Shown here: piece after piece, positions 25,326 through 64,000 of the stretch
Layout of the letters: every line of letters starts with the position of its first letter
Numbering within the stretch: position 1 is the first letter of the stretch
Source: a virus
Taxonomy: Duplodnaviria; Caudoviricetes
IMG/VR virus record: IMGVR_UViG_3300030620_000004
Span: 22,187 to 86,186 of that record
Length of the DNA stretch: 64,000 nt
Strand: one strand, 5' to 3'
The notes under the pieces: model-generated
Databases searched by the model: none
What the model was told of the DNA's origin: nothing
The model's input: the letters and a program-made list of their open reading frames with translations, nothing else
Made by a program: the position numbers and the translations under genes

Positions 25326-27752
25326 TCACGTCCCGAATGGCGTCGCTGTGGTCGCTTGGACCCTAGAAATCGCAGCTTGCGTGAAGCGCTTCTCGAATGC
25401 AATCGCAATGCGGTCGGGTTCCTGGTCACGGAAGTTCTGCTCGATCTTGAAGACCTGACCGCCGTTGAAGTTCACCTGCGGTGCGGCCCCCTTGGTCATC
25501 TCTTCGATCTCCTGTTCCTGACGCCCCTTCAGGCCGGTCACGAGCGCCTGGAATTGCGGACCCATCTGCTCGGCGACCGAGATCATTTTTGCGAAGCCCT
25601 CGGCGCTCATGTCGGCACTGCGCACGAAGGCATTGCGGAGCTGCTCGGAGCGATTCACGACGCCGAGGATGTACTCCATTGAAGACTGGTCGTGCGCTTG
25701 CCACGACTTCGCGAACGCTTGCGTGATGAGCCCAACGCTCGCTTCCTCCGCCTGCGCTAGCTCGAGCAACCCCTGCATGTACTTCTCTTCTTCATCAATT
25801 GCAGCCGACGACGTCGCCCCGAATTGCTTCACGACTGCATCGAAGTGCGCCGTGTCCGAGCCGACTTTCTTCGCGATCTTGTCGACGTTGCTGAAGGCAT
25901 CCTCGAGCGGGTGAAACAGGCCTTGCAGCATCCCACGCCGCTGCTTGTCCATTCCTTCGAAGCGCTCGAACGTGCGCTCGGGAATGAGCTTGTCCGAAGC
26001 GGCACGCTCGGCTGCTGCCCGAAGTTCATCCATGCGCTTGATCTGCTCGTCGTTGAGCACGCCCATCGTCTGCGAAAGCTGCGCGTACTCCTTGAGTCCG
26101 TCGTCGACGATGCGGTTTCGCTCGTCCTCCGCCTCGTTCACCTTGGCGTTCAGGTAGATGAGCCCGCCCGCGAATGCCGTTACTGCCGCAGTCGCAGCCC
26201 ACGCCGGGGGTCCGCCGGCAATGATGGCCCCTGCAAGCGAACCGATGCCCTTCGTGAGCTGTGCTCCCATCTGCACCGCAGGGCCACCCGACGCGACGAA
26301 CCCGCTCATCGCCGAACCAAAGCGACCTGCGACCGTGCCCGTCGACGCCGCTGCCTTCACGATGGCTTGCTGCGCCACCGACATCCCCTGCACCGCATTC
26401 GAAACCTGCGACGAGCCGCGCATGAGCACTTGCCCTGCGACCCCGTGCGTGTTCACCAAGTCCTGCACCACCGCCTTGTTGATTGCCGCGACTTGCTTTT
26501 GAGAGTCGGTCAGCCCGGTCAAGTCCAGCTTGGGAAGCGGCACCATGCCGCCCCCCCGTGGAGCCCCTGGGGAAGGGGCTCCCAAAAGACCCATGCTCCT
26601 GCTCGCCTGGCGCTCGCCTAGCGCGTTTGCCGCCCCCCCAAGGCCCCCCATAACGGCGCCCCCCAAACCGCCTAGGAGACCGCCCCCAGCGCCCGTCATG
26701 CTGAGCATCATTCCGCCCCCAAGGACCATCAATTCCGTCTTGTGGGCCAGAATCCAAGTGACCGTGTCCCGCGCAAACTGGAACCCTTCCTTCACGGCCG
26801 ACTTGATCTCGTCGGCATGCGTCTGAATGAACGCAAACGCATCCCGCATCCCCTTGATCGCGTCGCCCGCAAACTGCCCAACCTCTCGCCCTACGTCCTT
26901 CGCGAACGCTCGCAGGTCTCCACGCGCATCGCCCAGATCGCCCTGCAAGTCGACGAGCCCACCCATGAACTCCGTCATCGCAGACTTGCCGAACGTCTCC
27001 ATGAACTCGTCGCCGATGGCTCGAATCGACGTCACCATGTCAGAGAGTGTCGGTGGGGCCTTCCCCAAGTTCTCGGCGATCGACCCGATGGCACCCGACA
27101 ACCGGTTGATGCGCTCCTCTTGCGTGAGCTCGCGCCACTCCTTGTTCACGTCCTCGATCTTGGACGCGAAGATGCCCGTGCCTCGCAACAAATTGAAGAG
27201 CGGGCTTTCCATTGCCACCATGCCGGCACTCATCCGCCCGAAGTCCATGCCGAGCCGCTGCATGCTCAACCCCTGGACATCTGCGAGCGTCGTCAGGTTT
27301 TGCAGGTTGTCGCTCGCAACCTGGAATGCGCGGCTGCCACCCCCGAGAAACGTCACGAGCTCTTGGTGCCCCGCCTTGATGTCGTCCTTCAACACGCCGC
27401 TCGAGATCGTGAGCGTGTTGAACTGCGCGTTCAGGTCTTCCGCATAGGCGCGTGCAATCACCCACTCGTTGCCCGTCATACCGGCGAGCATGCCGGCGAT
27501 GTTCTGCTCGAGGTCGTACGCTTCAGAGCCGACGTCGATGAACCCCGTGACGACGTCCTTCAGCTTGCCGAGCAGTGGCCCCACGCTCACGGCCGCAAAC
27601 GTCGCGGCGAACTGCGTACCGAAGTCTCGAAGGGACGACTGCGTTTGGTCGACCTCGGCGTCGACGTCATCGAACCCACTGCGAATGCGGTTCAGAACCT
27701 CAGTCGCAAGGTCGTCGAGCTTGAGTTCTGTGCGAACGGATACGTCAGCCAC
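25326..27752 (-). CDS. Tape measure protein
   Basis: 808 aa, helical Ala/Gly-rich, directly downstream of the chaperone pair. Confidence 0.85.
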   Translation of the reverse strand: MADVSVRTELKLDDLATEVLNRIRSGFDDVDAEVDQTQSSLRDFGTQFAATFAAVSVGPLLGKLKDVVTGFIDVGSEAYDLEQNIAGMLAGMTGNEWVIARAYAEDLNAQFNTLTISSGVLKDDIKAGHQELVTFLGGGSRAFQVASDNLQNLTTLADVQGLSMQRLGMDFGRMSAGMVAMESPLFNLLRGTGIFASKIEDVNKEWRELTQEERINRLSGAIGSIAENLGKAPPTLSDMVTSIRAIGDEFMETFGKSAMTEFMGGLVDLQGDLGDARGDLRAFAKDVGREVGQFAGDAIKGMRDAFAFIQTHADEIKSAVKEGFQFARDTVTWILAHKTELMVLGGGMMLSMTGAGGGLLGGLGGAVMGGLGGAANALGERQASRSMGLLGAPSPGAPRGGGMVPLPKLDLTGLTDSQKQVAAINKAVVQDLVNTHGVAGQVLMRGSSQVSNAVQGMSVAQQAIVKAAASTGTVAGRFGSAMSGFVASGGPAVQMGAQLTKGIGSLAGAIIAGGPPAWAATAAVTAFAGGLIYLNAKVNEAEDERNRIVDDGLKEYAQLSQTMGVLNDEQIKRMDELRAAAERAASDKLIPERTFERFEGMDKQRRGMLQGLFHPLEDAFSNVDKIAKKVGSDTAHFDAVVKQFGATSSAAIDEEEKYMQGLLELAQAEEASVGLITQAFAKSWQAHDQSSMEYILGVVNRSEQLRNAFVRSADMSAEGFAKMISVAEQMGPQFQALVTGLKGRQEQEIEEMTKGAAPQVNFNGGQVFKIEQNFRDQEPDRIAIAFEKRFTQAAISRVQATTATPFGT

Positions 27753-34341: not shown

Positions 34342-34707
34342 TCATTCTTCCTGCGGCTTCAGACCGTGTGCGGCGCCAACCACCTGCTTCGCTGCGAGGA
34401 TGTTGCGAATGAACGGCTGCAAGTCCTCTTGCGCCGCGCACAAGTCTTCGAGCGTCACCCCTTGCGGGAGTGCTTCCTCGCCAAAGGCGACCTCGCACGC
34501 AATCCGGGCCGCGTCATTGACCGTCCGCGCAATCGGCTTGGCCTGCGCGCAGCCCGCCAGGCCCCCCAAGACCCCCAGCAAAAGAGCCAATTCCGGCCCC
34601 CTGGGTGGCCTTCCAAGAGACTTTTGACCAGGGGGGGCCCCCTGGTAGGGGTCCAGGCCCAAAGTCGCCCTGGGAGCGCCTGGGTCGGGGAGTCGGGGAG
34701 TCTGCAT
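34342..34707 (-). CDS. Putative lipoprotein (start probably later, TTG at 34617 or 34590)
   Basis: Hydrophobic stretch ending in lipobox LAGC. Confidence 0.6.
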   Translation of the reverse strand: MQTPRLPDPGAPRATLGLDPYQGAPPGQKSLGRPPRGPELALLLGVLGGLAGCAQAKPIARTVNDAARIACEVAFGEEALPQGVTLEDLCAAQEDLQPFIRNILAAKQVVGAAHGLKPQEE

Positions 34708-63222: not shown

Positions 63223-63378
63223 GCCCCATCATAGCGTCAGCACCTTTCGGTTCGCCGACGATGCCCTCTTCACCCGGCAGTTGCGTACCCGGCATGAGCT
63301 CGCGTCGCGATTGTACGCTCAGGCTCGCCCACCCCTCAGGTAGCGACGCTTCACCGGGGTCGGGCGGCCTGCTCAACT

Positions 63379-63588
63379 TCATACTCGCTTCACCTCGACC
63401 GAACCGCAAACGTTGCCATAGATGTCGCGCAATTGGTCGTCGGCTTCGGGCGCTTTGCACAACGCCGGACGTCGTGACAGTTGAGCGCTCACCTTGCGCG
63501 GAACACTCTCGAGCACAGCAGCAATCTCCCCGAAGTACGGCAGCTCGAACTCGATATGCACCTTCAGCACGGCAGAACCTCGGCGCAC
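63379..63588 (-). CDS. Hypothetical protein
   Basis: Small ORF packed in the operon. Confidence 0.45.
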   Translation of the reverse strand: MRRGSAVLKVHIEFELPYFGEIAAVLESVPRKVSAQLSRRPALCKAPEADDQLRDIYGNVCGSVEVKRV

Positions 63589-63776
63589 CCTGCAAAGCAG
63601 TTCGCGACGCCGTCTTCGCGCGTCACCCAGTGCGCGCCATGCGAGACCCCGCCGTCAACGTGATCGTAGGTGTACTGCCTGCCGTCCACCGCCCGAAAGC
63701 GCCGCCCCTTGCGGAGCGTATCGATGCGCACGCGCTGTTCCGCAGACCACTCAGCATCCGGGCTCCACCGCGTCAC
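63564..63776 (-). CDS. Hypothetical protein
   Basis: Small ORF 14 bp downstream of palindrome 11. Confidence 0.45.
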   Translation of the reverse strand: MTRWSPDAEWSAEQRVRIDTLRKGRRFRAVDGRQYTYDHVDGGVSHGAHWVTREDGVANCFAGCAEVLPC

Positions 63777-63790
63777 TCGAACCCTCGCGA

Positions 63791-63810
63791 ATGGAATCCC
63801 GGGTTTCCAT
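63791..63810. repeat. Dispersed palindrome copy 11
   Basis: ATGGAATCCCGGGTTTCCAT. Confidence 0.95.
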
Positions 63811-63850
63811 GAATCGCAGAGGCCCCGCCATCAGGAGGGGAAACCTGGAC

Positions 63851-63961
63851 GGGGCCGCTGCAGAGTGCATCGGCGCAAGTTCTACAGCGGAATGGGAATG
63901 GGCTGCGTTCGCCCAGCGCTCTAGATGCCCTGCTTCAATGGGGCCGCTGTAGAACTTGCGC
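63851..63961 (-). CRISPR. Single-spacer mini-array built from split type I-G (I-U)-like repeat halves
   Basis: Minus strand: GCGCAAGTTCTACAGCGG-CCCCATTGAAGC / 36-37-nt spacer (63895-63931) / CATT-CCGCTGTAGAACTTGCGC-CGATGCAC-TCTGCAGCGG-CCCC. No cas genes in the window. Confidence 0.75.
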
Positions 63962-63969
63962 ACAACCCC

Positions 63970-63975
63970 ATCATA
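63970..63975 (-). promoter_or_regulatory. Putative -10 element for the mini-array transcript
   Basis: TATGAT followed by GGGG, 8 nt before the first arm. The same TATGATGGGG precedes thyX. Confidence 0.5.
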
Positions 63976-64000
63976 CCTCACCGTCACTCATCAGGCAGGT

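Follow-up and report, generated by a model that had tools for sequence, protein, structure and literature searches.

A candidate viral mimic of type I-G CRISPR RNA, circularly permuted and closed by a stem

Background

How might a phage that holds no complete CRISPR repeat encode a CRISPR RNA (crRNA)? This question is raised by positions 63851 to 63975 of a 64,000-nucleotide (nt) stretch of DNA, called the window below, from a virus of the Caudoviricetes, an uncultured soil phage. The window is the final 64 kb of an 86,186-bp IMG/VR virus record (IMGVR_UViG_3300030620_000004, estimated completeness 93%). A first-pass annotation, made from the letters alone, had described here a minus-strand unit in which a single spacer is preceded by the 3' half and followed by the 5' half of a type I-G-like repeat, and had proposed that its RNA folds in two ways and is cut twice. 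Comparative evidence backs the core of this interpretation and not the idea of two folds with a second cut. We consider it probable that the unit is a virus-encoded crRNA mimic of type I-G, stem-closed and circularly permuted, which is most likely used as a guide; for guide use taken by itself the balance falls a little short of even.

Structure of the unit

All the motifs named earlier were found in the minus-strand reading at the positions given for them, the spacer being 37 nt long. In the order of that reading the features are as follows.

63993-63998, minus strand: candidate -35 box, weak (3/6)
63970-63975, minus strand: -10-like hexamer TATGAT, 8 nt upstream of arm A
63944-63961, minus strand: arm A, 18 nt; of these the 6 inner nt, CAGCGG, form the 3' stem arm of the type I-G repeat and the 12 outer nt a unit-specific extension
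63940-63943, minus strand: CCCC linker, 4 nt, from the base of the stem to the site where Csb2 is expected to cut; invariant in native repeats
63932-63939, minus strand: ATTGAAGC, 8 nt, predicted crRNA 5' handle
63895-63931, minus strand: spacer (predicted guide), 37 nt, a length equal to that of native spacers
63891-63894, minus strand: CATT, the 4 nt with which the repeat opens; in native repeats NTTT, NTCT or similar stands here
63873-63890, minus strand: arm B, 18 nt; its inner 6 nt, CCGCTG, are the repeat 5' stem arm, and the 12 nt after them an extension that is complementary to arm A
63865-63872, minus strand: linker, 8 nt, between arm B and arm C
63855-63864, minus strand: arm C, which with the CCCC after it is a second copy of the 3' half-repeat, without handle
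63851-63854, minus strand: CCCC after arm C, a motif read from the sequence
63816-63827, minus strand: partner D of arm C, the two forming a predicted hairpin immediately 3' of the unit

Arms A and B are, as had been described, a perfect inverted repeat (18 nt, 100% complementary, 53 nt between the arms), of which about 1e-4 would be expected by chance in 64 kb by our own estimate. The unit contains no complete repeat, there being no 5' arm upstream of arm A. Two complete direct repeats around the spacer are not present either: the only direct repeat is the 14-nt copy shared by arms A and C (arm C with its CCCC matches the inner end of arm A with its CCCC at 13/14 positions), and no handle follows arm C. 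Nor is the unit a solitary complete repeat, as it has no full repeat and does have a 37-nt spacer.

The repeat belongs to type I-G

The 18-mer that joins the inner end of arm A, the CCCC and the handle (CAGCGGCCCCATTGAAGC, 63932-63949) was searched for in one genome per prokaryotic species. The scan gave 53 loci, of which about 17 are true arrays, and in these the 3' part of the native repeats is identical to the 18-mer of the unit (CAGCGG-CCCC-ATTGAAGC). Their hosts include Myxococcota, Planctomycetota, Acidobacteriota, Cyanobacteriota and Verrucomicrobiota. The native arrays have a period of 72-73 nt, with repeats of 36 nt and spacers of 36-37 nt, and each repeat consists of an NTTT-like start, an arm beginning with CCGCTG, a loop of 4-6 nt, an arm ending in CAGCGG, CCCC and ATTGAAGC; the repeat layout which the first-pass annotation had given for type I-G is therefore correct. 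The other half of the unit agrees as well, since CATT-CCGCTG at 63885-63894 matches the native starts ATTT-, CTTT- and GTCT-CCGCTG.

The Cas4g/Cas1g fusion (NF049935) lies beside two of the arrays (L046 and L063), where it scores 743 and 727 bits with the cut-off at 560, and Csb2 (TIGR02165), a Cas5-Cas6 fusion, scored above the cut-off in 5/5 genomes holding the repeat. Because the repeats adjoin Cas4g/Cas1g and the genomes hold Csb2, the family is type I-G. Both half repeats of the phage unit are identical to native ones. Judged by its sequence, the unit has the two ends of a type I-G repeat, exchanged in order, on either side of a spacer of native length.

A point of comparison is the type I-G system of Thioalkalivibrio sulfidiphilus, which has a 36-nt repeat and the protospacer adjacent motif TTN; there Csb2 cuts 4 nt 3' of a 7-bp stem, leaving an 8-nt 5' handle, and remains bound to the hairpin after the cleavage step (PMC9638904). 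The proposal that pairing of A with B rebuilds this stem-CCCC-handle geometry agrees with both the sequence and the predicted folds. The unit shares with such native systems the CCCC linker, the ATTGAAGC handle, a spacer in the 36-37-nt range, the stem base CCGCTG/CAGCGG seen in many natural arrays and a predicted cut 4 nt past the stem. In contrast to them, it is not an array, its stem forms between halves of two repeat positions and is extended (9-30 bp in the units described below), and its loop, which takes in the CCCC, the handle, the spacer and the repeat start of 4 nt, measures 52-55 nt and not 4-6 nt. Moreover the viruses that encode the permuted units lack cas genes.

A type I-G repeat that stands alone, its loop enlarged and no other repeat lying within 75 nt, was also seen (L033:3900-4000), in a Myxococcales contig that holds in addition a normal array with a different repeat.

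The same layout recurs in other viruses

The 18-mer was found in one other viral contig (L011), where the layout is the same, the stem has 27 bp and another sequence, and the spacer is 36 nt long. IMG/VR was scanned a second time with the pattern GGCCCC, handle, 36-42 free bases and TCCG, which allows spacers of 33-39 nt and demands no stem. This gave 54 viral loci, distributed as follows.

Arrays: 10/54 loci
Conventional mini-arrays of one spacer that hold one or more complete repeats: 20/54 loci
Permuted layout, without a 5' arm of its own, with an A:B stem of 9-30 bp (median 15): 21/54 loci
No structure: 3/54 loci

There are thus 21 further distinct units in 20 other viral contigs, or 22 units in 21 contigs with that of the window. 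They share the order arm A, CCCC, ATTGAAGC, a spacer of 34-39 nt, NTTT and arm B, and the T preceding CCG, which the search did not force, is at least 90% conserved among them. One 100-kb virus carries two units at separate places (L011 and L072). Any native array fits this layout trivially, as each repeat's 3' arm is complementary to the 5' arm of the repeat that follows it, and a covariance model confirms this. What marks the viral units is that the partner halves are missing, that the stems are extended and unit-specific, and that they have promoter and terminator signals of their own. No homology was detected between units among the genes flanking the 21 units, so no associated protein emerges; with neighbours so unrelated, the unit is an independent module.

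In one virus (L086:4385-4563, minus strand) a second permuted unit follows the first in tandem at a distance of about 20 nt. Both have a stem and a spacer of their own, with a T-rich stretch after each stem, and the arrangement looks like a stacked 'array' of permuted units. In another (L112:3560-3665) a degenerate handle-like word stands right after arm B, and next to it the opening 17 nt of the unit's spacer recur exactly; a duplication or the decay of a second unit may account for this.

The stem covaries and is predicted to fold

The first-pass annotation had pointed to covariation between A and B in other viruses as a test, and this covariation is strong. No two of the stems in 20 aligned units are alike, yet 96.2% of the cells are paired, as against 59.8% in shuffles and 40-54% when the partner was slid, and 10/13 stem pairs changed on both sides. 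The covariation score is 0.907 vs 0.178, a statistic which is partly circular because the aligned units had been preselected for at least 9 pairs; a fairer measure is the number of stem-closed units, 21, among the 54 hits of a pattern that demanded no stem.

The A:B stem is present in the minimum-free-energy fold of all 21 units folded (21/21). It is also in that of the window RNA, with a mean pair probability of 0.88. A natural polymorphism at 63873 (G>A) occurs in the other terminal copy of the contig and also in an independent metagenome run. With it the outermost A:B pair, otherwise G-C, is a G-U pair when the minus strand is read and A-C when the plus strand is read. Compared with their shuffles both strands have the better fold (z = -2.8 and -2.3), and folding energy alone therefore does not tell the strand.

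The element is probably read from the minus strand

The single irregular pair between arms B and C had been taken as support for the direction. On the minus strand this pair is indeed a U-G wobble, and the plus strand has an A-C mismatch in its place. Support for the minus strand also comes from the signals around the other units. A TANNNT hexamer stands within 16 nt upstream of arm A in 13/21 units and in 3.7% of control windows (p = 3e-14), with good -35 boxes at 16-18 nt in several (L066, L096, L088, L109, L093 and L080), and a run of at least four T follows arm B in 9/21 units, as against 2.4% (p = 6e-10). The enriched -10 hexamers and T-runs imply that the transcript would start near the foot of arm A and often end just past arm B. 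On the strength of these signals the unit is a putative RNA gene read in the predicted direction, and in units with a T-run after arm B the stem would double as terminator.

A second fold with arm C is not supported

In the original proposal arm B could refold with arm C, giving a second hairpin and a second cut. This was not borne out. The predicted B:C pair probability is 0.0, also with arm A blocked or removed; in a longer transcript arm C pairs downstream with 63816-63827 at a probability of 0.91; and arm C occurs in 0/21 other units. The alternative fold was rejected on these grounds.

The 13/14 identity between arms C and A is nevertheless not due to chance. Arm C is probably what is left of the second repeat in an ancestral mini-array that had two, and now serves as the 5' arm of the downstream hairpin. 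If this is so, the window unit is an evolutionary intermediate.

Spacers are kept at native length

The spacers of the 21 units measure 34 nt (one unit), 36 nt (seven), 37 nt (six), 38 nt (six) and 39 nt (one), and their sequences are unrelated between units. A scan of viral contigs for spacers of 12-33 nt found no standard unit; it returned two short-loop forms and one unit (L134) whose true partner arm lies further on and whose spacer is 42 nt. The native-length guide points to full Cascade assembly, not mere sequestration of Csb2.

In the short-loop forms (L137:1175-1225 and L141:1580-1622) arm A, CCCC and the handle are followed by 6-8 nt, TTTT and arm B, with a T-run after that of L137; they look like repeat decoys in the permuted format.

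No target was found. The window spacer has no match in the phage's own genome, and the spacers of two other units have no match in viral contigs. These and the further searches given below say little, because the collections hold no relatives of the phage and no host link was obtained.

A one-cut model

The favoured reading may be put as follows. The RNA would be made from the minus strand, by its own weak promoter or by co-transcription with the upstream open reading frame (ORF), in the order arm A, CCCC, ATTGAAGC, the 37-nt spacer, CATT and arm B. The 18-bp A:B helix, whose inner 6 bp are of native stem sequence, would replace the native hairpin of 7-8 bp, and its extra base pairs would compensate for the cost of closing a 53-nt loop. 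Host Csb2 would bind the helix and make a single cut, 4 nt beyond its base. The product would consist of the 8-nt handle, a guide of native length, CATT and arm B, the last still paired to a short leader fragment, and would topologically be a mature crRNA with an opened hairpin loop. Host Cas7 and Cas8g could then assemble on it, so that part of the host Cascade would be loaded with a guide chosen by the phage. The most likely target of this guide would be a mobile element in competition with the phage or a locus of the host, with some dilution of the host crRNAs as a side effect.

Several points weigh against this reading, in addition to the partial circularity of the covariation statistic. 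Csb2 would have to accept a helix joined through a 53-nt loop and not through one of 4-6 nt. The handle, the CCCC and the CCG are invariant among the units by design of the search patterns. The window unit itself has a good -10 hexamer and a weak -35 box, but a strict sigma-70 scan calls no promoter there, and no T-run follows its arm B; as the promoter is weak and the T-run lacking, it may also be transcribed by read-through from the ORF whose end lies 8 nt upstream of the -10. As to the target, the window spacer gave no match in viral or metagenome contigs with a seed pattern in which every sixth base was free, the 3' part of the spacer gave only chance matches of 23-25/37 without seed in metagenome contigs, and the spacer is absent from 401 genomes of one candidate phylum at up to 3 mismatches. 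To these can be added the negative results for the spacers of L088 and L011 mentioned above. As to the host, relatives of the phage were found neither among deposited phages, by blastn of the region or tblastn of TerL, nor in IMG/VR, where TerL led to no related locus.

It is nonetheless slightly better than an even chance that viruses of type I-G hosts have evolved distinct and widespread "one-cut" crRNA genes, in which half repeats pair, one cleavage by Csb2 yields a loaded guide and the 3' hairpin is split over two RNA strands. If this were true, a Cas6-type enzyme and Cascade would accept a helix closed in trans, and pipelines that look for whole repeats would have missed an entire layer of virus-borne CRISPR RNAs. 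The permuted arrangement may also exist in other subtypes and on bacterial chromosomes, to judge from the orphan Bryobacterales units described below.

Other explanations

The explanation that survives best beside guide use is an RNA anti-CRISPR decoy, that is, a repeat mimic which ties up Csb2, Cas7 and Cas8g with a meaningless guide and for which the sequence of the spacer would be irrelevant. Solitary viral repeat units act in this way in type I-F (PMC10651486), none of the three spacers tried has a target, the spacers are unrelated between units, the long stems are predicted to bind Csb2 stably, and the short-loop forms (L137 and L141), with 6-8 nt after the handle, can hardly guide. A simple Csb2 sponge, however, needs neither spacers kept at the native 36-38 nt nor the absence of forms with 12-33 nt, and the known RNA anti-CRISPRs are whole single repeats without spacer. 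We therefore regard a pure decoy as unlikely, although decoy and guide are not mutually exclusive.

A regulator of the Cracr kind seems less likely still. Here the guide would pair in part with a host promoter (for example one that drives the cas operon, a toxin of the CreT type or some other defence system), and Cascade would repress it without cutting by Cas3. Viral crRNA-like RNAs are reported for V-A, I-F, I-E, I-C and I-B (bioRxiv 10.1101/2024.10.29.618823), and the partial matches on which they depend would escape searches with an exact seed. Moreover two Bryobacterales chromosomes with type I-G carry an orphan unit of the same layout at a conserved site, with a spacer of 21-27 nt, which looks regulatory. 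Yet the viral spacers are full length and differ from unit to unit, whereas Cracrs copy conserved host CreR or CreA spacers; no CreR or CreA of type I-G is known for comparison; and in its own genome the spacer of the orphan bacterial unit occurs at no second site, with up to 3 mismatches allowed.

The orphan units (L016:4690-4790 and L034:2890-2960, both on the minus strand) have spacers of 27 and 21 nt and stand beside rarA and thrB. They lie far from the resident type I-G locus and do not adjoin cas genes. The resident arrays have 124 and 279 repeats with a stem sequence different from that of the orphan units, and after each orphan unit comes a copy of the hairpin of the resident repeat that lacks the handle. 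The orphan units may be a host-encoded regulatory crRNA-like RNA.

A non-CRISPR element (an intergenic hairpin or terminator, a packaging or recombination site in the terminal repeat, or the functionless, decaying rest of a host array that had been captured) is very improbable: the unit does lie within a 205-nt terminal overlap adjacent to the terminase gene, arm C resembles the relic of a second repeat and Rfam has no match, but the 18-mer and the 5' repeat start, spaced as in native arrays, are found again in 21 other units whose gene contexts are unrelated and whose neighbour genes are not homologous to each other, and covarying stems with enriched promoter and terminator signals are not expected of decay or of a packaging site.

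Comparison with known virus-borne CRISPR RNAs

Three formats of virus-borne CRISPR RNA are known, namely mini-arrays, RNA anti-CRISPRs (Racr) and crRNA-like regulators, and all were found through whole or near-whole repeats. The permuted unit would be a fourth, with no intact repeat and with the recognition helix of a Cas6-type enzyme rebuilt across the spacer.

Viral mini-arrays (reviewed in PMC11656645), which were tested in Saccharolobus portogloboviruses, are likewise devoid of cas genes and carry one spacer of native length and a repeat that matches the host system. In both cases the match with the host system and the lack of cas genes mean that host Cas proteins must be borrowed. In contrast to mini-arrays, the unit has neither two direct repeats nor any full repeat, and its 3' half precedes the spacer while its 5' half follows. 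Its halves pair across the spacer through a stem of 9-30 bp specific to each unit, and one cut is predicted and not two. Conventional type I-G mini-arrays with spacer turnover are present in the same database (L067-L083, L100, L115). A two-repeat form with a degenerate second handle was seen in 12 related viral contigs (L067, L068, L070, L071, L073-L075, L081-L083, L100 and L115); at least four different spacers stand there at the same place, which shows that spacers turned over within one virus lineage.

Racr are also small viral RNAs that mimic a repeat, often right behind a promoter and with no cas genes nearby (PMC10651486). By analogy with them the unit would compete for Cas6-type and Cas7 proteins. 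A Racr is, however, a whole single repeat without guide, whereas the unit has a native-length spacer and no intact repeat. Subtype I-G is not mentioned in the main text of the Racr paper, whose finder used alignments to whole repeats with at least 50% coverage (PMC10651486). The 10-nt 5' half of the unit is below this coverage, and the finder may therefore have missed the format.

Cracr and CreA/CreR (bioRxiv 10.1101/2024.10.29.618823; PMC10120712) resemble the unit in having a single guide between degenerate repeat parts and in being independent small transcription units, and Cracr are sometimes stacked in tandem, as are the units of L086. They differ in keeping the order repeat-spacer-repeat with degenerate co-linear repeats, and their spacers copy host regulators, whereas the spacers of the permuted units are all different. 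In addition, Cracr were reported for V-A, I-F, I-E, I-C and I-B, not for I-G.

The first-pass annotation was aware of no description of such a design, and in the literature searched neither a viral RNA mimic of type I-G nor repeat halves pairing across a spacer was found. The unit is thus the first viral RNA mimic for this subtype in that literature. To our knowledge type I-G is the least studied of the type I systems. The model predicts that Csb2 processes a helix whose loop consists of the CCCC linker, the handle, the guide and the repeat start. Such a unit could offer compact, recombination-proof, single-cut expression of one guide for type I-G genome-editing tools, and surveys of phage counter-defence should look for half repeats with covarying partners.

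Position in the phage genome

Two further features place the unit in the genome.

63796-64000, no strand: terminal overlap of 205 nt, the same as contig bases 1-205 with 1 mismatch between the copies; the whole phage unit lies inside it
63984-64000, minus strand: 3' end and stop of a 91-aa phage ORF (phrog_1761), stop codon at 63984-63986; it precedes the unit, with TerL upstream, past the window end

Because of the 205-nt overlap of the ends with its 1 mismatch, the phage genome is circular or terminally redundant, despite the linear label of the record. If the repeat is physical, there would be a copy of the unit on each end of the virion DNA. As the window end repeats the contig start, the sequence past 64000 is known: the contig wraps through the overlap into the 91-aa ORF and TerL, so that the degenerate end of an ordinary host array, which had been raised as a possible refutation, is excluded. 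The array end was rejected as a candidate because phage genes lie beyond the window end. On the minus strand the gene order is TerL (phrog_38), the 91-aa ORF (phrog_1761), the unit, small ORFs and thymidylate synthase. Contigs of four metagenome DNA runs confirmed the sequence of the unit and the polymorphism at 63873.

Profile search found neither Csb2 nor Csb1 in the phage genome. For Csb2 this negative is meaningful, because the same search scored above the cut-off in 5/5 of the bacterial genomes that bear the repeat. No match to the phage, and so no host link, came from 423 spacers of native arrays. No Rfam family matches 63300-64000 at E values up to 10, and the window has no tRNAs.

A palindrome of about 20 bp with a CCCGGG core recurs across the phage genome, mostly between genes, at 63791-63810 and at least 10 other sites (for example G000:C1:20565-20592, 26493-26520 and 34459-34483). 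One copy stands about 40 nt downstream of the unit, and the palindrome could be an operator or a terminator.

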